Shown: positions 18,953 to 31,118, counted from the stretch's first letter. The stretch is 64,000 nucleotides of DNA from Promethearchaeota archaeon (GCA_048940645.1 JBHLOI010000004.1:27966-91965); one strand, 5' to 3'. The notes: generated by a model not told the origin, from the sequence alone. Numbers and translations: made by a program.

Positions 18953-19567
18953 TTAGTTATATTTTTTAAGAAATTTTTCAGCTGATTTTCTAGTTTTAAG
19001 GCTTTTACATTCCAGTTGAGCTTTTACAAATTCAATGACTTCTTCCTTATTTTCTATTTCATTAAAGAATTCATTGAAAGATTCAATAATATATGCTTTT
19101 ATTAAGTCTTTACGGCTAATTTCGTGATGTGTCTCATCTATACTTAATAATACTTTAGTTAGCTTATCTCTTAGGTGCGGTTTTGCTTTAGCAATGGTGC
19201 CAAGATTCGCTGCTAGATGCCCAGCTGTCATTACACTTTTAGCATCAATTAAATTACAATAAATATCAAAAATATCTTCAAACTTATTTTTAGTATCAAT
19301 TCTGGCAAGGTTGGCGAGAATTTGAATTCCAATAACTTTATGGAAATTGTTTTGACTTTTTAGCAAATCAATAAAAAAATCCCAATGTGGATAAAGGACT
19401 TCTGGTTTATTCTGGCTTATAATTAATAAGACTTTATGGCTATTATATCGAATAATTTCAGCTTTAGCTATAAGATTATTTATCAATTCAACTAATATTT
19501 TAGGATCTTCTATTGCTTTATTAATAAGGCTTTCAGGTTCAAAATCTTTCTTATTTAGATTATGCAA
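18953..19567 (-). CDS. Hypothetical all-helical protein (HEAT/ARM-like repeats?)
   Basis: The 204 aa protein has helical-repeat character (ILVELINNLI.., VIGIQILANLARID.., MTAGHLAANLGTIAKA..). I recognise no diagnostic motif. Confidence 0.35.
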   Translation of the reverse strand: MHNLNKKDFEPESLINKAIEDPKILVELINNLIAKAEIIRYNSHKVLLIISQNKPEVLYPHWDFFIDLLKSQNNFHKVIGIQILANLARIDTKNKFEDIFDIYCNLIDAKSVMTAGHLAANLGTIAKAKPHLRDKLTKVLLSIDETHHEISRKDLIKAYIIESFNEFFNEIENKEEVIEFVKAQLECKSLKTRKSAEKFLKKYN

Positions 19568-19634: not shown

Positions 19635-20765
19635 TTAGCTTCGCTTTCTTTTATCACGCGCTTTCTTTTTTTCATCAATAAATACCCAGATTATTAATGA
19701 ACTTGCACCAACAATTCCAATTGTTACCAAAGAGATTATTAAAATAGTCTTTTCATCCATAATTATTCTATAAATTGGCTCGGTTTTAAACAAATCAGCA
19801 ATTGGAATCATCTTACCAATAATTCCACTTTCATTCCCACTGGGATAGATTCTACCATGTGTAAATCCGAAATATTGAACTCCAGGAGCTCCAGGTACGA
19901 TTTTGGCTAATTCGTCATCCAAATTCAGTTTAACAACTTTGCTAAAATCGTGATGATAATAAATATAAATATCACGACTAACAGGATCAAAAATATTGCT
20001 ATACCATGTTTGATACATAGCTACAGCATTTAAAACCTCCCGACAAATGTCAACGGTGAGGACTTCTTCAGAATTAACATCGTCAAGTATAGAACAGGCG
20101 GCATCATAGCGCTCACATGGATACCATCCATTTGATGGATTTGCTAAGTTAAAATTAGTTGAAACTAGATAATTTGAATCATTTATACGTGTATATGCGA
20201 ATTCTCCATCAATTCCCGCACTCACAACTACAGCATCACCTGTAGCATCAGCATAGTGCATCTGTGCTGCAACTGCTGTACCAAAATAATAATTTTCAAA
20301 AAAATCAATAGCATCCTCAACATTACTTAATTCCCATAACCATTGAAACCCAACGTGTATTTCTGGGTAAGTATCATTCCGTTCGGGGTGGTCATTCAGG
20401 GGAGCGACTGGTAATCCATTTGCATCATAACACAAGCCTTGATCATTCATCCCGCCCTGTGGCACTCCATCACCTATAAAATAATTATTGTAAAATCCAA
20501 AAAATATCATTCCATGCATAAGTTGCTTTCCTTCAGGAGTTCCCGGGTCAATTTCTTGACTTGGAATAAGCCATATGTATACTCCTTCCATATCGTAATC
20601 TTCACTATTTCCAAAGAAGACTTTATCACCTAACTTAGCTGTAAATATTGTACAGGATTGAGCAATAGGATGAGGGGGATGGATACTAACAATGTTAATA
20701 ATTTGGATATTTGTAAAGAGACAAGAAAAAATAAAAAAATATAATAAAAGTCTTTTAGATTTCAT
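19635..20765 (-). CDS. Secreted/membrane-anchored Ntn-hydrolase-like protein (C45/choloylglycine-hydrolase-like), Cys nucleophile
   Basis: It has a signal/anchor sequence followed by AQSCTIFTAKLGDKVFFGNSEDY, a Cys-Thr start of the mature chain typical of linear-amide Ntn hydrolases. It also has a C-terminal TM helix and a basic tail (KKKARDKRKRS). Confidence 0.5.
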   Translation of the reverse strand: MKSKRLLLYFFIFSCLFTNIQIINIVSIHPPHPIAQSCTIFTAKLGDKVFFGNSEDYDMEGVYIWLIPSQEIDPGTPEGKQLMHGMIFFGFYNNYFIGDGVPQGGMNDQGLCYDANGLPVAPLNDHPERNDTYPEIHVGFQWLWELSNVEDAIDFFENYYFGTAVAAQMHYADATGDAVVVSAGIDGEFAYTRINDSNYLVSTNFNLANPSNGWYPCERYDAACSILDDVNSEEVLTVDICREVLNAVAMYQTWYSNIFDPVSRDIYIYYHHDFSKVVKLNLDDELAKIVPGAPGVQYFGFTHGRIYPSGNESGIIGKMIPIADLFKTEPIYRIIMDEKTILIISLVTIGIVGASSLIIWVFIDEKKKARDKRKRS

Positions 20766-20902: not shown

Positions 20903-23407
20903 TTAACTCATTTTTAGATAAGCCGCTGTTATAGACTCCTTAGATTTTATTATTTCTTCTGGATTACCTTTAGCAATAACTTTTCCACCCTTTGGCCCTC
21001 CTTCAGGTCCTAGCTCAATGATATAGTCAGTATAAGCAAGGATTTGAGGATCATGTTCAATTATAATGACACTATTTCCCTCTTTAACAAGTTGTTCGAG
21101 TAATTCCATTAACTTTACAGCATCATAGAATGATAAACCAACCGTTGGTTCATCTAATATATACAGTGAATCACCTTTGCGTGCTTTTCCTAATTCTTTC
21201 GCTAGTTTGATACGCTGAGCCTCACCTCCACTCAATGTCGGAGCTGGTTGTCCAAGTGTGACATACCCCATACCGATCCTATCAAGGATTTTTAGTACAT
21301 TCGAAATATTTACTTGGGATTTAAATAATTCTAATGCCTCACTTACTGTCATGTTCAACACTTCTGAAATCGTCTTGTCTTTATATTTAACTTCTAGGAT
21401 TTCTGGCTTATATCTCATACCTTTACATTCCTTGCAAGGGATTGTGAAGCTACTAAGAAATGATATTTGTAAATCCTGAACACCATTTCCTTTACATGCT
21501 GGACATCTTCCACTATCAGAATTATAAGAGAAATGTCCTGCTTTATAATTTCTCTTTTTTGCCTCAGGAGTTTTAGCAAAGATATTTCTAATTTTTTCCC
21601 AAATCCCGATAAAAGAACAAGGTGTCGAGGTTCTTACCCTAGAAATTGGCTTTTGGTTGACAACAATGACTCCATCCAAATTTTCCCATCCTTCTATAAT
21701 TCCAGAGTACTCTAACAGATCTTTATCATTTTCCTCGTTTTCATCCTCCTCCTCCTTTTTCATTTGTTTTATTTCAACACCTCTTTTAAAAAATGGTTTT
21801 ATCAGTGGTACAAGACTATCCAATATTAGAGAACTTTTCCCAGACCCTGAAACCCCGGCAATACCTACCATCATTCCCAATGGAATTTTAACCGTAATAT
21901 TTTTTAGGTTATTAGTTTTTACATTCCTAATTGTAATGTATTTAGTGTTTTCATTAATAACCTTATTTTCCTCAATGAGTTTTTCAGGCAATTTAATATT
22001 ACCAGCTAAAAATTGACCAGTATATGAATTTTCTACATTTATTATTCCATCAATCGAACCTTGATAAACTATCTCACCACCATTCACGCCCGCTCCTGGA
22101 CCTATATCTATTATTTCATCAGCAATATCTATAAAACGTTTATCGTGCTCAACAATAATTACTGTATTTCCTAAATCTTTTAATTGTTTTAATACTTCAA
22201 TTAAGGAATCCTTCTCTTTTTCATGTAAACTCATGCTGGGTTCATCTAATATATAGACAAGAGAATCAAGGCCAGAATCTAAATGGGTCATGAGAGTTAA
22301 TCGTTGAAGTTCACCACCACTTAATGTAGGTAAAGAACGATTTAAATGTAAGTATGAAAGACCAACATTAATCATACGTTTTAATCCTTCTAATAAGCTA
22401 TCTAACATTGATTTACCTTGCGGACTTATTACATGTTCTTCACTAATGCTTTCTAAAAATACAATCAATTCATCAATAGTCATCATAGCTAACTCACCAA
22501 TATGTTTTTCAGCGACTTTAACTTCTCTCGCATGTTCATTTATTCGATAACCATCACATTCTTCACATTTTTTCATTGACATGAAATTTTCATGAATCTT
22601 ATGCCTTCTATAAGTACTCTTTGACTCTGTGAGAGCACGCTTCACATGGGGAATAATTCCTTCAAACACTCTTTCTAATATTCCTGTAAATGTCTTAGAG
22701 TCCCACTCAAAAGGTAATTTTTTACCACTACCATATAAAAATACCTGTCTTATATCATCCGGTAAATCTTTATACGGTGTTTTAATGTCAAAATCGTAAA
22801 ATCTTGGCAATTGTTCAACAAAACGAATTTGATCAGCAAAAACAGCTGAACCTGCTTTTGTTATTTGAACTAAGTTTCTATTAGTATCTTGAACGATTAA
22901 ATCCTCAGTAATGTGCATGGTATATCCTCTACCCTTGCAAGATAAGCACATACCTGAGGGTTCATTAAATGAAAAATGTTTAATTTGTTTCCTTTCCACG
23001 ACCATCCCGCACAAATCACATTCTAGATTATTATTAACTGGTTCCTTGCAAATAGGGCATATCAAAATACCTTCAGTGGCATATAGCATTCTGAGTAATC
23101 CATAAATTCCTGTTTTAGTTCCTACTGTAGAGCGAGGATTAAATATACGTGTAGTTCGTTGTTCCACTGCTACTGTGGGACTTAACCCCTCAATTAAATC
23201 AAAAGGCTTCTCATCTTCAAATTTAGGTGGAAAACCGATGGATTGAAGGTATCTATTCATCCCCTCATCAAATATAATATCAAATGCCAAGCTCGATTTA
23301 CCTGAACCTGAAACTCCTGTGATAAGAATTATTTTTCTTTTTGGAATATTAACATTTATGTTCTTTAAATTATGGATTCTTGCTCCAACAACTTTTATTA
23401 CATCCAT
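20903..23407 (-). CDS. UvrA paralog lacking the UvrB-binding domain (class II UvrA / DrrC-like)
   Basis: It begins IKVVGARIHNLKNINVNIPKRKIILITGVSGSGKSSLAFD and has two ABC modules (GVSGSGKSS twice; LSGGELQRL and LSGGEAQRI) plus zinc modules. Only ~25 residues separate CPICKEPV from FSFNEPSGMCLSCKGRG, where canonical UvrA carries a ~140 aa UvrB-binding insert. The protein is 834 aa. Confidence 0.9.
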   Translation of the reverse strand: MDVIKVVGARIHNLKNINVNIPKRKIILITGVSGSGKSSLAFDIIFDEGMNRYLQSIGFPPKFEDEKPFDLIEGLSPTVAVEQRTTRIFNPRSTVGTKTGIYGLLRMLYATEGILICPICKEPVNNNLECDLCGMVVERKQIKHFSFNEPSGMCLSCKGRGYTMHITEDLIVQDTNRNLVQITKAGSAVFADQIRFVEQLPRFYDFDIKTPYKDLPDDIRQVFLYGSGKKLPFEWDSKTFTGILERVFEGIIPHVKRALTESKSTYRRHKIHENFMSMKKCEECDGYRINEHAREVKVAEKHIGELAMMTIDELIVFLESISEEHVISPQGKSMLDSLLEGLKRMINVGLSYLHLNRSLPTLSGGELQRLTLMTHLDSGLDSLVYILDEPSMSLHEKEKDSLIEVLKQLKDLGNTVIIVEHDKRFIDIADEIIDIGPGAGVNGGEIVYQGSIDGIINVENSYTGQFLAGNIKLPEKLIEENKVINENTKYITIRNVKTNNLKNITVKIPLGMMVGIAGVSGSGKSSLILDSLVPLIKPFFKRGVEIKQMKKEEEDENEENDKDLLEYSGIIEGWENLDGVIVVNQKPISRVRTSTPCSFIGIWEKIRNIFAKTPEAKKRNYKAGHFSYNSDSGRCPACKGNGVQDLQISFLSSFTIPCKECKGMRYKPEILEVKYKDKTISEVLNMTVSEALELFKSQVNISNVLKILDRIGMGYVTLGQPAPTLSGGEAQRIKLAKELGKARKGDSLYILDEPTVGLSFYDAVKLMELLEQLVKEGNSVIIIEHDPQILAYTDYIIELGPEGGPKGGKVIAKGNPEEIIKSKESITAAYLKMS

Positions 23408-23432
23408 ATTCTAATTCATCACTTTTTTTAGT

Positions 23433-24098
23433 TTATTTTTGAAAAATATAGAATGCACAATCAAATTCTTTAGGATTTTTCTTAACCATGTTGATTTCTT
23501 CTTCATAAGGCTTCAAACTTTTAATCTCTTTATATTTTTTATATTTAGAACGTAATTCCTTGATCTTTTTTTCCATCGGTAAATAATATTCTTTCCACCA
23601 ACATTCTTCTGGTAATAAGAACTTATTTAAGAGATTAAAACCGTATTCAGGAAAGACTTCTAAGTTCTTGTTAATCCATTTTATTCCTTCTCCCACTACC
23701 AAAAACCCATTTGGCTTTAATACTCGGTGACATTCCACTAAACTTTTCTTGATATTAAGGAGATGTAATACTCCTTCATCCCAAATAAGATTAAAACTCT
23801 CCGCTGAGAAGTCTGTATTATATACAGAACGATTTAATATTCTTATACGAGTTGAAAGACCTTCTTTTACAATTTTTAATTTAAATCTATCTAAAGCAGT
23901 TTGATTTATATCAATTCCAGTGATCTCACCATCGCTAAGCCTTGCTAATTCGATTGTTGGGGCACCAGACCCGCAACCAATATCTAAAATACTTGGATTT
24001 TCCATTTTAGGAAGCATATTAAATGTTTTCCTTGTATATTTTAAGAAGACCTCGCGCATTTTTTCAACATCTAATTCATTCGAAATATCTAACGACAT
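23433..24098 (-). CDS. Class I SAM-dependent methyltransferase
   Basis: It has motif I ILDIGCGSGAPT, post-I ITGIDIN and LKPNGFLVV. Confidence 0.8.
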   Translation of the reverse strand: MSLDISNELDVEKMREVFLKYTRKTFNMLPKMENPSILDIGCGSGAPTIELARLSDGEITGIDINQTALDRFKLKIVKEGLSTRIRILNRSVYNTDFSAESFNLIWDEGVLHLLNIKKSLVECHRVLKPNGFLVVGEGIKWINKNLEVFPEYGFNLLNKFLLPEECWWKEYYLPMEKKIKELRSKYKKYKEIKSLKPYEEEINMVKKNPKEFDCAFYIFQK

Positions 24099-24108
24099 TT
24101 TCTTTTTT

Positions 24109-25278
24109 TTAAATTGATTTTTTTATTGTTTCCCATGCATTAATTTCTAATTCTGCCCATTCTTGAATACCCTTATCTATATGGGGGATACGGTCTCTCC
24201 ATGCATCTAATTCCTTTTTAGCCCCATTTGTAACTTCTTCAGTTTCATCATCAAGCTTTTTCAACTGCTTCTGATAATTACTACCTCCTTCTTCCGTAAT
24301 CTCATTGCTTTTTAGGAATAATCCTCTTAATTTTCCAATGTTAGGAAGGTCATCCGGCAACATAATAGTTTCTAATTCTCGAATTTTATAAACAATTTCA
24401 TCAAACATATATGAAGCTTTAAGAAGCCCATTATTACTTAATAAATTTCCTGCTTCTTTTAAGAAATCCCGATATAAAATTCGAAACATTGCACCACCAG
24501 TCCCCCCCGTCTCCATGTAAATAAACACAGAAACTATACCAAACAATAGATTATCATCATTAAAGTTGGTAGCCCACGTCGGAAGCATCTTTCTCCATTT
24601 CTCAAAACCAGTCAATCCCATATTACGGATTGGAGGATTGTACATATAATTCACATTAGCCTTTATAGCAGTGGGAATAATTTCCTTTAAATTCTTAACC
24701 TTTTTTGGTAAGATTAATTCAACTAATTTATTCTTGGCTGGAAAAGGTGCGTGTTTACTCCCCCTTGCTGCCTTTAATTGCTCATAGGACATTATATGGG
24801 GATTAGCATATCGATCAGAAATATAAACTTCATTTTTTTCCTCATCAATTCCATATGTTACAAATGTATGGGCGCCAAAATGACCCGATTGTTCATTAGG
24901 GATGGGGGTGCCCTCTGCAAAAAAGAAAGGCAGATACGCAAAATCAACAAATGTTATAGCGGGTTTTCCTTTCTCTAATAATGCAATTAGATTATTATGG
25001 GCAGCATTTTCTGATGCTGTCTCTGTAACTTTTATACTTCCTCCTAGAATGCTTAAAACCCTTTCAAAAACCTCGGTTTTCTTCACTGCTAGTCCTAAAA
25101 CCATTGGAAAGGGCATTCTTTTCATGTAGAAATAGAAAAAACCTAACCCTGAGCACAATCCAATTATCATTGGTTCGGAAAGTTCAATGCCATAATAAGC
25201 GAGGACTTTTCTTAAACTTGAAGTCTGGCAATTTGCACCTGCCATATGTTTAAAATCATCTATTATTATTCTAACCAT
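24109..25278 (-). CDS. BtrH_N (papain/C39-like) + DUF4872 protein, paralog B
   Basis: It has an N-terminal GANCQTSSLRKVLAYYG (candidate Cys nucleophile), HFGAHTFVTYGID (His) and YISDRY (Asp). The architecture matches its paralog at 26795..27931. Confidence 0.6.
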   Translation of the reverse strand: MVRIIIDDFKHMAGANCQTSSLRKVLAYYGIELSEPMIIGLCSGLGFFYFYMKRMPFPMVLGLAVKKTEVFERVLSILGGSIKVTETASENAAHNNLIALLEKGKPAITFVDFAYLPFFFAEGTPIPNEQSGHFGAHTFVTYGIDEEKNEVYISDRYANPHIMSYEQLKAARGSKHAPFPAKNKLVELILPKKVKNLKEIIPTAIKANVNYMYNPPIRNMGLTGFEKWRKMLPTWATNFNDDNLLFGIVSVFIYMETGGTGGAMFRILYRDFLKEAGNLLSNNGLLKASYMFDEIVYKIRELETIMLPDDLPNIGKLRGLFLKSNEITEEGGSNYQKQLKKLDDETEEVTNGAKKELDAWRDRIPHIDKGIQEWAELEINAWETIKKSI

Positions 25279-25290
25279 TTTTTTCCCCTT

Positions 25291-25728
25291 CTACTTTATA
25301 TTTGGATTAATTTTATTACCACAATCATAGCATTCTGCATCGTGAATGCAAATTTCACCCTTACATTTGGGGCATGTATAGAGTTTTTCTTGCTCCTGGA
25401 GCCACAATTCAACTCCAATTTCTTCAATTCTTCTTAAATTATTAATCATATTGACGGAATACCTTTCTTGATAAAGACTATCCATTTTTTGTAGCTTTTG
25501 ACAAGGGAAGCTATCACATTCATAACAAAATTCTAATTCTTTTTTTCTCAATGCCGGACAATCTTTTCTTATAAATGCACAATTTTTATTTCTTATTCGA
25601 CAACCTTTACAACCTATTTTATACCCTCTTTCTTCTAATAAATCTTTTTTCCAGAGGAGATACTGCCTGCAAGCACCACAATATATACCGCAGGGTGCTG
25701 CTAAATTATTATCAACCATTTTTTCCAC
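25291..25728 (-). CDS. DUF3795-type Cys-rich protein
   Basis: It reads CGIYCGACRQY ... CKGCR ... C..C .. CPKCKG, a Cys pattern typical of DUF3795. Confidence 0.6.
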   Translation of the reverse strand: MEKMVDNNLAAPCGIYCGACRQYLLWKKDLLEERGYKIGCKGCRIRNKNCAFIRKDCPALRKKELEFCYECDSFPCQKLQKMDSLYQERYSVNMINNLRRIEEIGVELWLQEQEKLYTCPKCKGEICIHDAECYDCGNKINPNIK

Positions 25729-25758
25729 TACTCATGCTTTTATTTTTATGTATTTATT

Positions 25759-26775
25759 TTAACTATAATATCGTTTTAACACTCTTAAGGCAAATAATGT
25801 AATCCATTTACTTTCCTTTCCTTTTTGTTCGATATTTGCCTGCATTCGCCCATTAAAAGATTTCTCTAATATCCATCGACCATTCTCATTTTGCTTTGAT
25901 ACAATTAAATCAATGGCTTCTGTCATTCTATCGTCTTTACAGCCTAATTTTGTTAAGATATCTGAAACTTCTAAAGAATCGATTTTCCAAAATAAAGGAA
26001 AACCAAATTCAACCCATTCTTGCTTCGCAACAGCTTCCAAATTATGACTTTGCTTATAAATATGATGATTAAGCATAAATTCAGTTGCTTTATTTATTGT
26101 ATCTCTTACATCATTTGATCTTTTATCTGGGGGTATCTCCGCCAGTGCCTTTAAATTTTTCACAACCGCCATATGACATGTGTGTGTTCCCCAACAAGCT
26201 TCACCTTTCTTAGAGCCTACAGTATAAGGCCATTCTTCTGGAGGCCTTTTTCCACCATCATCAAAGCGTTGATATTTGGTAATCCAGTCTATCCCTTGTT
26301 GGATTCTAGAATCCCCCAAATATCCAAATCTAATCAAACTCCAGAGCATATTACCGGTTAAACAAGCTAATACTTTATTATGATCACCACCATTTTCTCC
26401 ACTATAATAAGCAAATGCTCCACTTAACTTATCTTGAGAATTCTGAAGGATAAATTCACAAGTCTTCATAATCTTTTCATCATTACCATCAGCATGAAGT
26501 TCAGATAATACTATGAACTGCCAAATTGTTCCTTTATATTTTGTTCTAATGTAAAAATTTTCAGCAATTTCCCAAAATCCATCGGTTTTTTGCTTACTCA
26601 AAATTTTAGGAACAACACCAACCGTCATAATTTTTTCTTGTGTCTTTTTAACCTTATCATCGTTCGGGTTCTTATCTAAAAGATCTGTTAGCGTAAAATA
26701 ACGAACTGAAGGATTATTTTCTTCTAATAACCATTCAATTGGATCTGATTTCAAATATGATTTCCAATTTCTCAT
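25759..26775 (-). CDS. Alpha/alpha-toroid (prenyltransferase/terpene-cyclase-like repeat) protein
   Basis: It has repeating helical-hairpin segments with aromatic-rich motifs (DGFWEIAENFY, GTIWQFIVLSEL, SGAFAYYSG, NGRWILEKSF). The assignment is by general resemblance only. Confidence 0.45.
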   Translation of the reverse strand: MRNWKSYLKSDPIEWLLEENNPSVRYFTLTDLLDKNPNDDKVKKTQEKIMTVGVVPKILSKQKTDGFWEIAENFYIRTKYKGTIWQFIVLSELHADGNDEKIMKTCEFILQNSQDKLSGAFAYYSGENGGDHNKVLACLTGNMLWSLIRFGYLGDSRIQQGIDWITKYQRFDDGGKRPPEEWPYTVGSKKGEACWGTHTCHMAVVKNLKALAEIPPDKRSNDVRDTINKATEFMLNHHIYKQSHNLEAVAKQEWVEFGFPLFWKIDSLEVSDILTKLGCKDDRMTEAIDLIVSKQNENGRWILEKSFNGRMQANIEQKGKESKWITLFALRVLKRYYS

Positions 26776-26794
26776 TCTCTCAAACTCCTATAAA

Positions 26795-27931
26795 TTAAAT
26801 TTTAATTTTGGATAATTTCTTAAAGAGCTGTTCCTCTTCTGACAATATTTCTAAAGTAAGATTATGTAGTTCATTTAGATTTACGTGCTTTAAACATTCA
26901 TTTTTATATTCATCAGCAGCATTTTTTAAAGTCTCTGCTAAAAGCGTCCATTTTTGAGCAGATGCAGTCAAGTGTGGAAGAGAAGCCTTTAAAATTTCCA
27001 ATTCATCAATTTTCCATGCTCTTTGACCCTCTTTTAACTCCGGGTGATCTACAAGCTCTTCGATGAAGGATTTATACAAATTTCGAAAACTTGCTCCACC
27101 AGTCCCCCAAGTTTCAATATACCCATGTATTAATTCAAAGGTTAATCTAGCAGATGATTCTTCTTTTCCATTATAGGGATTAATAATTTGACCCTTTAAT
27201 GTCTCATTCCAGTTTAATATTGCATTTGCGAAGCGTTTGAATCCTTGAATTCCAACATTATTCATTGATGGCCTTAACATATGATTTACAACTTTCTGGA
27301 TTGCTAGCTTTACCCCTGCAGCGAATGGAGGATGTTTTCCGTCCACACGTCGTTGCATTGAATATTGGGTATTGTTAGGGTGTAAGAATTTTGGACCATG
27401 TCTAGAATTTCGTGCTTTTTTCAAATCTTCAATAAAAATTTCTTGAAAACCTTCAAATTCGGTATCTCCCACATACGCAAATCCTTTATCTTCATTGTAT
27501 CCAGCAAGAGTTATTGCATGCCCCCCAAAATGGATCTCTTCCTCTTCTTCAAAATAAGGCAAGAAACCTAAATCAACTTGAATTAATAATGGAACATCTT
27601 GCATGAGAAGCTTTTTAGATTCCTCCCATGCTTTATCTGCACTTGTAAATGATTGCTTTCTTAAAGTAATACCTAAAAGCCGACAGGCTAAGGAATTTGG
27701 TGTGATTGTATCTTGTTTTCCACCAACAAAAATAGCCATATCTGAGGGTTCTGATCCAGCTGTTCTAGTGGAGCTATCAAAATATGCAAATCCCATTGTT
27801 CCATCAAGTCCAAATGCCATTGGTTCCGACATGGGAAATCCATAAAATTCAAACATATCTCTCATTGCAGAAGATTCACAATGGGAGCCAATTTTGTGAA
27901 TAAAGTTATTTACCAAATGATTCTGAGTCAA
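26795..27931 (-). CDS. BtrH_N (papain/C39-like) + DUF4872 protein, paralog A
   Basis: It has GSHCESSAMRDMFEFYG, IHFGGHAITLAGYN and YVGDTE. The shared downstream block WGTGGA.FR.LY..F..E also occurs in paralog B. Confidence 0.6.
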   Translation of the reverse strand: MTQNHLVNNFIHKIGSHCESSAMRDMFEFYGFPMSEPMAFGLDGTMGFAYFDSSTRTAGSEPSDMAIFVGGKQDTITPNSLACRLLGITLRKQSFTSADKAWEESKKLLMQDVPLLIQVDLGFLPYFEEEEEIHFGGHAITLAGYNEDKGFAYVGDTEFEGFQEIFIEDLKKARNSRHGPKFLHPNNTQYSMQRRVDGKHPPFAAGVKLAIQKVVNHMLRPSMNNVGIQGFKRFANAILNWNETLKGQIINPYNGKEESSARLTFELIHGYIETWGTGGASFRNLYKSFIEELVDHPELKEGQRAWKIDELEILKASLPHLTASAQKWTLLAETLKNAADEYKNECLKHVNLNELHNLTLEILSEEEQLFKKLSKIKI

Positions 27932-28487
27932 TTTGGCCTCCTCCTTTCTTAATTTCTTCTAAAACCCATTTCAAAAATTCAATATCAGTTCCTAATATCC
28001 TAATAGGATGTTCAAAAAGACCTCTAACATTCAATGGCATATGAGAATTCTGCTTTAACATCCACTCTAATCCCTTTTTATGTTTTTTTATTTTGGCTAA
28101 TGAATGATTAATTGCCTTAATTTGTTCTTCTCTTGATAATAAAGGAAGCATTGAAAAGGCAACATAGAAATCCTCATCTTTCTTCCCCATAAATTCAGAT
28201 AATACATTAATCATCTTTTTCTTTAACGCTTTAAATCCAAGATCAGTTATAGTGTAAACCTTTCGAACTCTATTATCTACTTCTTCTTCATAAAACTCTA
28301 CAAATTCGGCGTCTTCCAATTCACCTATAACCCGGTAAATTGAAGACTTCCCAATTGCAGTCCAAGCTCTCATACCTCTCTCTTCTATTCTCTGATTTAT
28401 ATTATAAGCATGGCTAGGAAATTCTGCGACTAAACCTAGTAAAACAAATTGCTTATGAGTTAATCCATTTTCTGAGTTTTCAGACAT
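27906..28487 (-). CDS. PadR-family transcriptional regulator
   Basis: It reads FVLLGLVAEFPSHAYNINQRIEERGMRAWTAIGKSSIYRVIGELEDAEFVE...RKVYTITDLG, a canonical PadR wHTH. It overlaps the next gene by 26 nt. Confidence 0.85.
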   Translation of the reverse strand: MSENSENGLTHKQFVLLGLVAEFPSHAYNINQRIEERGMRAWTAIGKSSIYRVIGELEDAEFVEFYEEEVDNRVRKVYTITDLGFKALKKKMINVLSEFMGKKDEDFYVAFSMLPLLSREEQIKAINHSLAKIKKHKKGLEWMLKQNSHMPLNVRGLFEHPIRILGTDIEFLKWVLEEIKKGGGQIDSESFGK

Positions 28488-28512
28488 CCTAATCTTAATT
28501 TTTTAAAAAATC

Positions 28513-28550
28513 GAATATTCTCATTTGAGAATATTCTCATATGAGAGTAT
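28513..28550. promoter_or_regulatory. Candidate PadR operator: tandem GAATATTCTCAT repeats forming two palindromes
   Basis: The sequence is GAATATTCTCAT-TTGA-GAATATTCTCAT-ATGAGAGTAT. ATTCTCA-TT-TGAGAAT is a perfect inverted repeat and ATTCTCAT/ATGAGAGT is a near-perfect one. It lies 26-63 nt upstream of the padR start. Confidence 0.5.
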
Positions 28551-28647
28551 ATGTTAATTTTATATTTAAATCTTTTCATCAAGTTAGAGTAGATAAAATT
28601 GAAGACTACAAAAATCTATTATTAAAAATAAAAAAAAGTTTTATGTA

Positions 28648-29454
28648 TTAACCTTGAAATCTTTTTTCCAGTGTTTTTTGATGTATTGCAAAGGCTAAAA
28701 ATAGAAAACCAAATCCAAATCCTAATAAAACTAAAATGTCAATTATTAATCCAAAAGGTCCGAATGCACTAACTTCTCCTAACCCTACATTTATTATATC
28801 AAGAGAATATGTAAGTGGAGATATTATCGCAGTTGGCAGTGAAGTAATAGGCATAAAAAGCGGGCTAATAAATAGCAATGGAAATTTAATGAAGATTTGT
28901 AAAATCATTGTATTTCCAGGATTTTTTGTTGGTGGAGCAGAGATAATCAAACTAAAACTAGAAAAGACTAGTGCCGAAATAATCATACCAGCAATAATTA
29001 GAAAATAATTAATAAGCAATCCACTTGAGAGAAATATTACTCCTAAGACTAAAGGAATTGATGAGAATAACAAGCCATATATAAATGAACCCCAAATACT
29101 ACCAATTAATATAGTTTTAATTGAAACTGGACAAGTAGTTAAACGCTCAAAAGTACCACGCATAGTCTCCCATGGAAAGATGATTGGGCCCAGAGAAGTT
29201 GAAGTCAAGAAAAGAACCATTGCTATTATTCCAGAAATAAGATAAACGGGTGATATAGTTCTTCCTATTGTAAAAGCAAGAAATAAAATTATCGGAAAAA
29301 ATATTCCTTGAATTAATACAGGGGGTTTATTATAATAAATTTTCAAATCTTTTTTAGTTATTGTAAAAGATCTTTTTAATTGTGTTTTAAAATTTCTAAA
29401 CTTGGATTTTTTAGTAATTAAGTACTCCTTATTAATTTTTACCACCCCTTTCAA
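28648..29454 (-). CDS. ABC-2 type exporter permease
   Basis: It is a six-helix hydrophobic protein that overlaps the upstream ATPase gene by 23 nt, a typical ABC-2/DrrB-like layout. Confidence 0.8.
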   Translation of the reverse strand: MKGVVKINKEYLITKKSKFRNFKTQLKRSFTITKKDLKIYYNKPPVLIQGIFFPIILFLAFTIGRTISPVYLISGIIAMVLFLTSTSLGPIIFPWETMRGTFERLTTCPVSIKTILIGSIWGSFIYGLLFSSIPLVLGVIFLSSGLLINYFLIIAGMIISALVFSSFSLIISAPPTKNPGNTMILQIFIKFPLLFISPLFMPITSLPTAIISPLTYSLDIINVGLGEVSAFGPFGLIIDILVLLGFGFGFLFLAFAIHQKTLEKRFQG

Positions 29455-30448
29455 TGATTTTTAAAAATGCATCCTCTAATTTTGGTTGATGTGTATTTAA
29501 TTGTTTTATAATTAGATGATTCTGCTTTATGAAATCTATTATTTCGCATATACTTTCATGAACGTCTTCTACAATTATGTGAAAACCTTCTCTTACCTCT
29601 TGAACTTCTCTCACTGTGCTTAATTCTTCAATTTGGTTTTTATTTACTCCATTGGCAAAATAAAAATCGATTGCTTTATATTCCTGAGTTAAATTTTTCA
29701 AGTTTTTAGGAGTATCCAAACTTATGATTTTACCATGATGAATAATTGCAATCCTATGGCATAATTCGTTTGCTACCTCCATATCATGAGTCGTAAGGAA
29801 GATTGTCACACCTTTTTCATTATATTCTCTAATCAATTGCTTAATAATGCGAGCAGATTGTACATCCAATCCACTTGTCGGTTCATCCAGAAATAAAATT
29901 TCTGGATCACTCATTAATGCCATACATAGCAATAATCTTTGTTTCATTCCCTTCGAATATTTCATTGATTTCATATTACGCTTTTCATATAATTCGAATT
30001 TCTTAAGTAGAGCCTCTGCTCGTTTTAAGCGGACTTTTTTAGAAACACCATATATTTCTCCAATAAACATTAAATTTTGTAAACCTGACATTTCAAAATA
30101 TACGTTTGCCTCCTCAGGAACATTTCCAGTAATCTGTTTGACGAGAATTTGATTCTTCCATACATCCAGTCCAAATATAGATACATTTCCTTTAGTAGGG
30201 TTTAATACTCCTGTCATCATACGAATCGTGGTTGTTTTTCCAGCACCATTAGGACCTAGAAATCCAAAGATTTCCCCCTTTTTCACCTCAAAGTTAATAT
30301 TATCAACTGCTCGAATTATACCCTGCGTTCTTTGCGGACTATTTGGTCCCCTTTTCCCATTTTTCCCTTTTTTTGGGGATTTAAAATGTTTGGTTAGATT
30401 ATTTACAATTATTGCGCTCATTTTAATACCTCTACTTCTCTTCTTCAT
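29432..30448 (-). CDS. ABC-2 type exporter ATP-binding protein (DrrA-like)
   Basis: It has Walker A GPNGAGKTT, signature YSKGMKQRL, Walker B ILFLDEPTSGLD and an H-loop TTHDM. An alternative start is ATG 30421 (MSAIIVNNL). Confidence 0.9.
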   Translation of the reverse strand: MKKRSRGIKMSAIIVNNLTKHFKSPKKGKNGKRGPNSPQRTQGIIRAVDNINFEVKKGEIFGFLGPNGAGKTTTIRMMTGVLNPTKGNVSIFGLDVWKNQILVKQITGNVPEEANVYFEMSGLQNLMFIGEIYGVSKKVRLKRAEALLKKFELYEKRNMKSMKYSKGMKQRLLLCMALMSDPEILFLDEPTSGLDVQSARIIKQLIREYNEKGVTIFLTTHDMEVANELCHRIAIIHHGKIISLDTPKNLKNLTQEYKAIDFYFANGVNKNQIEELSTVREVQEVREGFHIIVEDVHESICEIIDFIKQNHLIIKQLNTHQPKLEDAFLKIIERGGKN

Positions 30449-30590
30449 CTAATTGAATGTGCTTTAAAAGCTCATTGATAGGTTGATCACCATGACATTT
30501 GATAATTTGATTTAGAGAACACCCGTGTGGATGCTTATCTTTTATTTCAGGCTTATCGCAAGCACATTCTTCTGTTTCCTTTATTTTCAT
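30432..30590 (-). CDS. Possible 52-aa Cys/His-containing small protein at the head of the ABC exporter operon
   Basis: The peptide is MKIKETEECACDKPEIKDKHPHGCSLNQIIKCHGDQPINELLKHIQLDEEEK. It has an ATG start, and its stop overlaps the ABC ATPase start by 17 nt (coupled arrangement). It falls below the ORF-track length cut-off. Confidence 0.3.
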   Translation of the reverse strand: MKIKETEECACDKPEIKDKHPHGCSLNQIIKCHGDQPINELLKHIQLDEEEK

Positions 30591-30770: not shown

Positions 30771-31118
30771 ATGACAAAAGAAATAGATCTTGAAAATATG
30801 GGTGATTATATAAAAGCACTGCATTGTGAAATTCGTTGGGTTTTAATAGACATTTTACGAGATGGTCCAAAATCTTCTGATGAGATTTTTAACCATCTTA
30901 AAAGTGTTAGTGGAAAAATTAACGATAATATAAAATGCCATGGTATGTGTGGTAAAGGAGATTTTAAGGATTTAAAGAAACCATCTTTATATTATCATCT
31001 TAGGGAATTAGAAAACGTAGGTATTATTAAAGCAGATTACAAGCCAAGCGAAAGTAAAAGAGCCCCTGAAAAAGTATGGAAATTGAATTTGGAAAAACTA
31101 ACAATAAATTTAAAATAA
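30771..31118 (+). CDS. ArsR-like winged-helix regulator with Cys-containing insertion
   Basis: It reads IKALHCEIRWVLIDILRDGPKSSDEIFNHL ... LYYHLRELENVGIIKA, with an inserted KCHGMCGKGDF loop. It is divergent from the ABC exporter operon. Confidence 0.6.
   Translation: MTKEIDLENMGDYIKALHCEIRWVLIDILRDGPKSSDEIFNHLKSVSGKINDNIKCHGMCGKGDFKDLKKPSLYYHLRELENVGIIKADYKPSESKRAPEKVWKLNLEKLTINLK

Follow-up and report, generated by a model that had tools for sequence, protein, structure and literature searches.

A PadR-headed operon joining a UvrA paralogue to papain-like ligase-fold enzymes in Promethearchaeota: a possible inducible tolerance locus for DNA-targeting compounds

What might a UvrA paralogue do in an archaeal gene block that also encodes a PadR repressor, two papain-like enzymes and an exporter? 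The block in question lies in a 64,000-nucleotide (nt) stretch of DNA from Promethearchaeota archaeon (GCA_048940645.1 JBHLOI010000004.1:27966-91965), referred to here as the window, in which ten open reading frames (ORFs) occupy the minus strand between positions 20903 and 30590 (Table 1). An earlier note, made from the sequence alone, had described these genes as one coordinated system that removes a DNA-binding small molecule from DNA, modifies it and exports it. In this study, the locus was analyzed for its genes and their operon layout, for the conservation of its operators and of the genes as a set, and for the domains and folds of the proteins. The results gave about an even chance to the reading of the block as a two-unit inducible locus for tolerance of a genotoxic small molecule that binds to or reacts with DNA. 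The earlier reading was upheld in part: the operon, the anatomy of the UvrA paralogue (UvrA2) and the fold of the BtrH_N/DUF4872 enzymes (BtrH_A and BtrH_B) stood, and the unity of the exporter with the other genes, the label "DrrC-like" and full novelty needed qualification.

The coordinates and domain assignments of all ten genes were confirmed by Pfam, NCBIfam and, for the toroid protein, a structure model. Seven genes from padR to uvrA2 form a tight string with gaps of -26, 19, 30, 12, 10 and 25 nt, none above 30 nt, as the earlier note had described with its 10–30 nt gaps or overlaps. The 160 nt between the permease stop and the padR start hold an oligo-T tract, a TATA-like box and two palindromes. 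The oligo-T tract is likely an archaeal terminator between two units. On the sequence, the block reads as two transcription units: an exporter unit and a PadR-headed seven-gene operon with its own TATA box.

The region upstream of padR was taken from about 30 orthologous loci. A TATA-like box with two tandem palindromes was common to about 25 of them, nearly all of those examined; in the window, the palindromes overlap and lie just downstream of the box. The half-sites were lineage-specific: TTCTCA·TATGAGAA in the window's genus; TTCTAC·TAGTAGAA in families f9, f20, and f24; and TATGCC·AGCATAA in one f9 genome. The layout was constant, and half-sites that co-vary by lineage within a kept layout are the pattern expected of a real co-evolving repressor–operator pair. 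In every locus examined, padR was the first gene of the operon. Its product had a winged-helix domain, and a predicted palindromic operator was located at its own promoter, consistent with the PadR family.

A total of 301 genomes of the phylum were searched for DUF4872 and for UvrA2. DUF4872 was present in 117 genomes; in the window's genome it occurred in two genes only, both inside this operon. Twenty neighbourhoods were selected by DUF4872 matches alone. The order PadR-BtrH_A-...-UvrA2 was found in all uncut neighbourhoods, with the sole exception of genome G040, in which UvrA2 lay about 10 kb downstream. PadR, BtrH_A and UvrA2 occurred together in families f1, f4, f20, and f24. UvrA2 orthologues (at least 53% identity) were present in 52 of the 301 genomes, in families f1, f2, f4, f20, f24, and f29. 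A DUF4872 gene was located within about 5.5 kb of UvrA2 in 41 of these 52 genomes and at about 10 kb in one; about seven of the remaining genomes were uninformative, with one of the genes at a contig end, and three were unlinked (G238, G244, and G162). The toroid, DUF3795, BtrH_B, and methyltransferase genes were each absent from some orthologous operons, and the shortest form, PadR-BtrH-UvrA2-BtrH, was found in family f24. Judged by these gene orders, the core consists of PadR, the A-type BtrH_N/DUF4872 protein and UvrA2. The PadR operon recurred in at least five Asgard families, so the arrangement is far beyond chance, and the chance juxtaposition considered in the earlier note does not apply to the operon. 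Across the genus of the window, the operon is syntenic, in a core-genome position beside an actin gene, and it was present in about two thirds of the genomes of the window's family.

UvrA2 matched TIGR00630 in two pieces (positions 2–127 and 251–924), with about 128–250 skipped, and PF17755 UvrA_DNA-bind was located at residues 194–272. An alignment was made of Asgard UvrA2 proteins, the UvrA1 of the window's genome and three class II proteins from bacteria. UvrA2 kept the tandem ATP-binding cassette (ABC) modules, the insertion (DNA-binding) domain and zinc modules 2 and 3, with CxxC pairs conserved in the alignment. A linker of about 10 residues was found where UvrA1 has a UvrB-binding domain of about 120 residues. 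The profile gap and the alignment thus bear out the proposal that this UvrA lacks the UvrB-binding domain; a canonical UvrA (959 amino acids) adjoins UvrB on contig C46 of the same genome.

The features common to UvrA2 and class II UvrA (Deinococcus radiodurans UvrA2, Ecm16, and DrrC) are the two ABC modules, the insertion domain, zinc modules 2 and 3, the missing UvrB-binding domain and the coexistence with a canonical UvrA in the genome. In contrast to class II, the Asgard protein keeps both CxxC pairs of zinc module 1 (CPIC...CDLC), with a linker of about 10 residues between them. This module was kept in all Asgard UvrA2 aligned, and the class II proteins from Psychrobacter, Deinococcus, and Streptomyces lacked it; Ecm16 was also reported to be without it (PMC10192343). 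The identity of UvrA2 was 44% to the genome's own UvrA1 and 35–38% to bacterial class II. Scores against structures in the PDB were about 670 bits for class I, 504 bits for D. radiodurans UvrA2 (2vf7) and 457 bits for Ecm16 (7sh1). In the IQ-TREE phylogeny, in which only three bacterial class II sequences were sampled and the deep nodes were without resolution, Asgard UvrA2 formed its own clade with 100/100 support, apart from class I, bacterial class II and both halves of a giant Asgard double UvrA. In this tree, the row labelled as an Azospirillum "class I" sequence (branch length 10) is an artefact of ORF extraction and should be ignored. UvrA2 is not a DrrC orthologue and by identity stands nearer to class I UvrA. 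The loss of the domain was probably independent of class II, and UvrA2 may work like a class II UvrA, although membership of that clade was not supported by the tree.

Some UvrA2 orthologues were truncated or had one in-frame stop (L085:8850-9263 in G244, G282:C93, G276:C34, G246:C54, G117:C219, G261:C149, and G162:C76), which reflects either gene decay in some lineages or assembly errors. A giant tandem double UvrA-like protein of about 1620–1645 amino acids was encoded in families f1, f9, and f14 (L043:865-5736, L044:14262-19130, L070:4578-9470, L073:2386-7320, L079:11722-16647, and L103:10670-15544). Its N-terminal unit is without the insertion domain, and its C-terminal unit is colinear with UvrA2. 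The gene was always followed by one for a distant toroid-like protein and sometimes stood directly after the PadR operon; this constant order hints at a functional link between UvrA and toroid.

The AlphaFold model of BtrH_A was searched with Foldseek. Full-length matches were obtained to AziU3/U2 (E-value 3e-11), CtaG (template-modelling (TM) score 0.72) and CcbD; the matched entries were 8gs1, 9qvj (TM 0.72), and 7yn2, with E-values of 3e-11 to 2e-7, and phytochelatin synthase formed the next tier. CtaG, BtrH, and AsbE are papain-like ligases that combine a Cys-His-Asp triad with a helical C-domain and act by a ping-pong mechanism through an acyl-enzyme, and the closest-fold ligases enclose a small-molecule chamber (PMC12865890). 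As modelled, BtrH_N and DUF4872 together make up the two-part CtaG/BtrH fold of a papain-like N-domain and a helical C-domain. The triad Cys18/His138/Asp156 was conserved across the Asgard BtrH subtypes. The matches suggested that the BtrH proteins are papain-fold acyl-transfer enzymes, consistent with the papain-like hydrolases or transferases proposed before.

CtaG, CcbD (LmbD), AziU3/U2, BtrH, and AsbE have in common with the Asgard proteins the two-part fold and the triad spacing (C18/H138/D156 vs. C11/H128/D144 in CtaG). They differ in that the identity is only 13–15%, that the Asgard genes have no biosynthetic context, and that these genes are placed under a xenobiotic-type repressor and paired with a DNA-scanning ATPase. 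No carrier protein or PP-binding domain was found among the operon genes or flanks. The scores of the two proteins for NCBIfam DarH (NF053550), 125.7 and 124.2 bits, were below the cutoff of 300.

Outside this operon, PadR-BtrH_B without UvrA2 was the basic unit in other Asgard families (f7, f9, f14, and f15). Plasmid-borne BtrH homologues were located behind TetR and with PaaI thioesterases in Acinetobacter, overlapping a MerR-GyrI-like regulator in Streptomyces, and inside a YcaO/SagB cluster in Bacillus. In three genomes of family f9, a convergent gene for RidA (L-PSP, a reactive enamine/imine deaminase) lay directly downstream of PadR-BtrH_B (L068:10561-10962, L074:9196-9576, and L076:8944-9366).

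The neighbours of these genes in other lineages were also investigated. Self-resistance to DNA-alkylating natural products is an established role of both GyrI-like hydrolases and AlkD/YtkR2 glycosylases (PMC5684135, PMC8626424). The order PadR-GyrI-like-BtrH was found in L080 and PadR-BtrH-GyrI-like in L072. In L077, PadR-BtrH was followed by an AlkD-type DNA-alkylation repair glycosylase (122 bits). AlkD-like genes were present in 234 of the 301 genomes and lay within 3 kb of a PadR-BtrH unit only in G023 and four f14 genomes, so the support from AlkD is modest; the AlkD-like gene of the window's genome is on contig C83, outside the operon. Genome G238 of family f29 had the most divergent UvrA2 orthologue, which was without BtrH and translationally coupled to a GyrI-like protein. 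The order in this genome (L105:4630-11970) was a 327-amino-acid protein, a GyrI-like/Cass2 protein overlapping the UvrA2 start, UvrA2, and an SNF2 helicase with DUF3670. The 327-amino-acid protein was tried as a cryptic BtrH and rejected (hhalign probability 0.3%). Because BtrH, UvrA2, GyrI-like, AlkD-like, exporter, and xenobiotic-type repressor genes keep co-occurring, and GyrI-like and AlkD proteins are known genotoxin factors, these genes appear to form one association network with a DNA-targeting small molecule as its theme. The GyrI-like, AlkD-like, and ABC exporter neighbours point to such a compound, as the earlier note had claimed.

The exporter unit may be a DrrAB-type tandem, with a DrrA match just under the cutoff and a permease match above it, and the four-gene module of ArsR-like regulator, Cys/His-rich peptide, ATPase, and permease is itself conserved. 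A permease orthologue was present in 50 of the 71 genomes of the window's family. The ABC-2 module was located directly upstream of padR, in the same orientation, in six genomes of two genera (G000, G099, G153, G113, G150, and G132; the window, L034, L099, L100, L101, and L102), with a permease identity of 63–97%. In these genomes, the permease lay within 3.5 kb of the operon's DUF4872 gene and 0.2–2 kb upstream of padR. L099–L102 were picked for proximity and are not an unbiased sample; in the unbiased first set, window included, an exporter lay directly upstream in 4 of 21 loci. The ABC unit adjoined the PadR operon in about a quarter of the genomes holding both. The permease was 8–17 kb from the operon in G207 and G177 and on another contig in about 15 genomes. 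In G121 and G141 (L035 and L036), the nearest relatives within the genus, the flanks from enoyl-CoA hydratase to padR were identical and there was no ABC unit. In L041, L042, and L103, the same upstream slot was filled by a non-homologous heterodimeric exporter (ABC_membrane plus ABC_tran, twice). The swap of one exporter type for another at the same slot is a stronger argument for function than plain synteny. By these gene orders, the exporter link appears facultative but recurrent. Of the ten genes claimed as one coordinated system, seven make up a co-conserved operon; the ABC unit appears to be a separate transcription unit, with its own ArsR-like regulator, and is a facultative neighbour.

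The combination of genes was compared with known systems, among which the aureolic-acid modules of chromomycin (CmmRII, CmrX, CmrA/CmrB) and mithramycin (MtrX/MtrAB) stand beside the PadR/UvrA2/ABC set of the window. The chromomycin cluster holds srcmH/I, RII (PadR), and J (CmrX-like), in which a two-domain PadR, a UvrA paralogue of about 825 amino acids, an ABC ATPase, and an ABC permease stand side by side (PMC5992853). The window holds PadR, UvrA-like, ABC ATPase, and ABC permease genes within 9.7 kb, and a Streptomyces plasmid locus (L096) has UvrA-like, PadR, ABC ATPase, and permease genes in a row. The aureolic-acid modules lie inside the polyketide cluster of the producer, whereas the Asgard locus is without a biosynthetic core; no polyketide synthase (PKS), nonribosomal peptide synthetase (NRPS), or glycosyltransferase genes were found in the window region 12–40 kb. 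The gene order also differs, the PadR proteins are only 28% identical, PadR and UvrA2 are separated in the Asgard operon by genes for two CtaG-class enzymes, a toroid, DUF3795, and a methyltransferase, and the Asgard exporter has its own regulator and a facultative link. A PadR beside a heterodimeric ABC_membrane plus ABC_tran exporter, as in LmrR-LmrCD of Lactococcus lactis, where a drug sensor of the PadR type governs a heterodimeric ABC multidrug exporter, was found in L041, L042, and L103. The ligands of LmrR are DNA-binding dyes and drugs. However, the Asgard PadR heads an enzyme/UvrA2 operon rather than exporter genes, and the exporter of the window is of the ABC-2 type with an ArsR-like regulator. 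The yatakemycin/CC-1065 set (AlkD-like YtkR2, GyrI-like YtkR7, and a transporter) resembles the packing of GyrI-like and AlkD-like genes with PadR-BtrH or UvrA2 elsewhere in Asgard archaea (PMC5684135, PMC8626424), but neither gene is in the operon of the window and the association is limited to a few lineages.

The earlier statement that this composition was not known from any characterised system was too broad. The part made of PadR, a UvrA-like protein, an ABC ATPase, and a permease is of an already known kind, the chromomycin module (PMC5992853), and the added enzymes were undescribed. In a literature search, no description was found of a UvrB-independent UvrA paired with CtaG-class enzymes, or of DUF4872. 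What differs is that non-producer Asgard archaea conserve a UvrB-independent UvrA together with CtaG-class enzymes, whether or not the toroid, DUF3795, and methyltransferase genes are also there. To our knowledge, nearly all UvrA paralogues described as UvrB-independent come from actinomycetes that produce antibiotics, where they serve in self-resistance. In these archaea, which are related to eukaryotes, a conserved operon under a repressor combines a UvrA2 of probably independent origin with enzymes of the papain-like ligase fold, and this would offer a route to the function of UvrA paralogues. If the tolerance reading is true, sediment Asgard archaea face DNA-targeting natural products with a dedicated inducible answer, and the CtaG/BtrH class has a first non-biosynthetic (detoxifying or repair) role. 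The operon is tractable, with a defined operator, a single regulator and few genes that can be expressed in laboratory hosts.

The ligand, the catalytic steps and the resistance phenotype we infer as follows. PadR would sense the compound and autorepress its operon: bound to the two tandem palindromes past the TATA box, it would block transcription until the ligand frees it, following the precedent of LmrR and CmmRII. UvrA2, unable to recruit UvrB, would recognise ligand-distorted DNA and clear it with ATP, as Ecm16 and DrrC are thought to do. The BtrH enzymes would inactivate the compound by acylation or deacylation through an acyl-enzyme intermediate, and the methyltransferase may modify it further. 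The toroid and DUF3795 proteins would be dispensable helpers. The separately regulated ABC exporter, often recruited beside the operon, would expel the compound or its products.

Several findings weigh against such a tolerance locus. UvrA2 falls outside the clade of known resistance UvrA paralogues, and the exporter is distant or on another contig in most genomes holding both. The ArsR-like regulator and the Cys/His peptide would also suit a metal-related role for the ABC unit. All characterised CtaG/BtrH/CcbD/AziU relatives are biosynthetic and use carrier-protein-bound donors, and the operon is without a carrier protein. In a minority of BtrH_A orthologues, the N-terminal part is an HNH endonuclease domain (PF01844/PF14279) whose motif, CxxC...HH...N...CxxCH, looks complete (P0054, P0105, P0113, P0118, and P0119; L039:9652-11067 and L046:10349-11776), and an intact-looking fusion would fit direct action on DNA better than modification of a drug. 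Some of the exporter findings suit the reading that the ten genes are not one system, the ABC unit being an exporter of unrelated function (metals or peptides, for example) that only neighbours the PadR operon; this is a substantial though not the favoured possibility. The predicted promoter, terminator, and divergent regulator of its own, the empty slot in G121 and G141, the orthologues on other contigs, and the hint of metal chemistry in the peptide and the ArsR family agree with it; the co-oriented adjacency repeated in six genomes, the replacement exporter in three others, and the known functional module of UvrA-like, PadR, and ABC exporter do not. The HNH fusions, which occur in UvrA2 operons (L039 and L046), favour a DNA-repair pathway for a bulky covalent lesion, such as a DNA-peptide/protein crosslink or an acyl adduct, in which UvrA2 would find the lesion and the BtrH cysteine enzyme would remove it, replacing UvrB/UvrC, with the fused nuclease nicking the strand in some lineages. 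The tight coupling of BtrH_A to UvrA2, the AlkD-like glycosylase in L077, the SNF2 helicase in G238, and the primarily peptidase nature of the papain fold are in line with repair. We consider it unlikely, as sensors of the PadR, TetR, and MerR-GyrI type and GyrI-like ligand binders recur with BtrH, many lineages hold PadR-BtrH_B without any DNA-acting partner, ABC exporters have been recruited to adjacent positions, the nearest structural matches are ligases that enclose a chamber for a small molecule (PMC12865890), and the HNH fusion is a minority variant. A specific form of it, in which UvrA2 and BtrH_A would be a UvrB/UvrC-independent machine, UvrA2 locating a bulky covalent adduct (drug, peptide or protein) on DNA and the cysteine transacylase/peptidase stripping it in place, aided in some lineages by a fused HNH nuclease, is rather improbable; if true, Asgard archaea would have a novel type of DNA repair by direct reversal that is theirs alone.

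The biosynthetic nature of every characterised structural relative (CtaG, CcbD, AziU3/U2, BtrH, and AsbE; PMC12865890) raises the alternative of a small cluster making a DNA-binding metabolite, with UvrA2 and the exporter for self-resistance and PadR as pathway repressor, as in aureolic-acid clusters. The makers would be the two CtaG-like ligases, the methyltransferase, the terpene-cyclase-like toroid, and the Cys-rich protein. UvrA-like, PadR, and ABC genes do occur inside Streptomyces gene clusters, and the Bacillus BtrH homologue lies in a YcaO/SagB cluster. However, no carrier protein, adenylating enzyme, PKS/NRPS, ATP-grasp enzyme, or precursor peptide was found in the operon with Pfam and NCBIfam, the "tailoring" genes are individually dispensable, with PadR-BtrH or PadR-BtrH-UvrA2 as minimal units, the toroid is without DxDD and also stands alone, and the position by the actin gene is stable across the genus; the alternative is improbable. 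A MADS-like anti-phage or anti-plasmid defence, in which the UvrA-like protein senses foreign DNA, the methyltransferase marks self, and HNH/cysteine-protease effectors act, is very improbable. PADLOC matched the UvrA2 halves to mad8 (118 bits) and mad3 (249 bits) and the methyltransferase to mad2 (70 bits), and HNH fusions occur in some orthologues. No relevant PADLOC match was obtained for BtrH, toroid, DUF3795, or PadR (for PadR, one weak CARF, E-value 0.0015). Published MADS pairs ATPases with Toprim nucleases and kinases, and MAD3 with the Toprim protein MAD4 (PMC13662399); the locus encodes neither a Toprim protein nor a kinase. The methyltransferase is dispensable and without DNA-methylase motifs, the regulator and neighbours are of the drug-sensor type, and the locus, syntenic and held by so many genomes of the family, is not patchy like a defence island. 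Membership of MADS was rejected, the similarity in PADLOC being limited to the ATPase and methyltransferase domains and the Toprim/kinase set being absent.

Table 1. Features of the locus in the window, with the evidence for each assignment
Feature	Position	Strand	Evidence
204-amino-acid helical (HEAT-like) protein	18953..19567	-	no Pfam or PDB match
376-amino-acid protein, N- and C-terminal hydrophobic segments	19635..20765	-	no family match
UvrA2, UvrA paralogue without UvrB-binding domain	20903..23407	-	TIGR00630 854.6 bits vs. cutoff 729.8
Class I S-adenosylmethionine (SAM) methyltransferase	23433..24098	-	Methyltransf_11/25/31
BtrH_B, second BtrH_N + DUF4872	24109..25278	-	Pfam; triad conserved
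DUF3795 Cys-rich protein, C-terminal zinc-ribbon-like CxxC pairs, accessory	25291..25728	-	PF12675 41.8 bits
Alpha/alpha-toroid protein, accessory	25759..26775	-	AlphaFold predicted local distance difference test (pLDDT) 88, predicted TM score (pTM) 0.90
BtrH_A, BtrH_N + DUF4872, UvrA2-linked subtype	26795..27931	-	Pfam; AlphaFold pLDDT 83
PadR-family repressor, two-domain type, 193 amino acids	27906..28487	-	PF03551 47.5 bits vs. cutoff 27
padR promoter region	28513..28570	-	TATA-like box 28563-28570, then palindromes 28513-28550
Oligo-T tract after permease stop (ttttttttatttttaat)	28622..28637	-	sequence
ABC-2 type permease	28648..29454	-	PF01061 50.2 bits vs. cutoff 26.9
DrrA-subfamily ABC ATPase	29432..30448	-	PF00005 97.8 bits; TIGR01188 drrA 309.8 bits vs. 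cutoff 312.45
52-amino-acid Cys/His-rich peptide, first gene of ABC unit	30432..30590	-	translation and orthologue conservation
ArsR-like winged-helix regulator, divergent from ABC unit	30771..31118	+	HTH_5 E-value 3.8e-4, weak, below cutoff

The small peptide of the exporter unit matched no Pfam or NCBIfam family. Its identity to orthologues in five other genomes of two genera was 75–92%, which exceeds the conservation of the adjacent permease, and residues C11, C24, C32, H20, H33, and H44 were invariant. By this conservation, the ORF is a real gene. The ArsR-like gene accompanied the peptide and ABC genes in L034, L099, L101, L102, and L104. From the sequence and the L034 orthologue, the ATPase probably starts at the ATG at 30421, 10 nt past the peptide stop, rather than at 30448. 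The motif KCHGMCGKG of the ArsR-like regulator resembles KCHGDQP of the peptide, and the likeness suggests that control of the ABC unit involves a metal or thiol chemistry common to both. A ribosomally synthesised and post-translationally modified peptide system, with the Cys peptide as precursor, a C39-like protease, and the exporter, was considered and rejected: the peptide travels with the ABC/ArsR genes rather than with the BtrH genes, and there is no modifying core enzyme.

Among the accessory proteins, the toroid gave only a squalene-cyclase match below threshold by profile. The confident AlphaFold model, built on 24 homologues, agrees with the alpha/alpha-toroid assigned before. The likeness to class II terpene cyclases was at the fold level only (TM 0.42–0.47, 10–14% identity), and the DxDD motif of these enzymes was absent from the toroid sequence. 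The gene was missing from many orthologous operons and occurred elsewhere as a stand-alone gene at 62% identity. A LanC- or prenyltransferase-like zinc site was rejected, as only one Cys (C200) is common to the toroid and the toroid-like partners of the giant UvrA. The best NCBIfam matches of the methyltransferase were CpaM and UbiE/MenG, all far below cutoff, and its sequence holds no (D/N)PP(Y/F) DNA-methylase motif; it is classed by sequence as a small-molecule type. PDB sequence searches with BtrH_A, the toroid, DUF3795, and the HEAT-like protein gave no useful matches, including no solved relative of DUF3795.

Toroid-family proteins P0130, P0135, P0173, and P0202 are named "nitrogen fixation protein NifH" by NCBI and have no NifH similarity, which looks like propagated misannotation. 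Downstream of the operon, the HEAT-like gene usually directly follows UvrA2 in the genus, at 38–83 nt in L040, L041, and L042, and is a possible eighth operon member. It was tried as an AlkD-type glycosylase and rejected, since neither Pfam, even up to E = 10, nor a profile search of the PDB supported it. The 376-amino-acid gene, apparently with a TATA-like promoter of its own, sits between UvrA2 and the HEAT-like gene only in the species of the window and its closest relatives.

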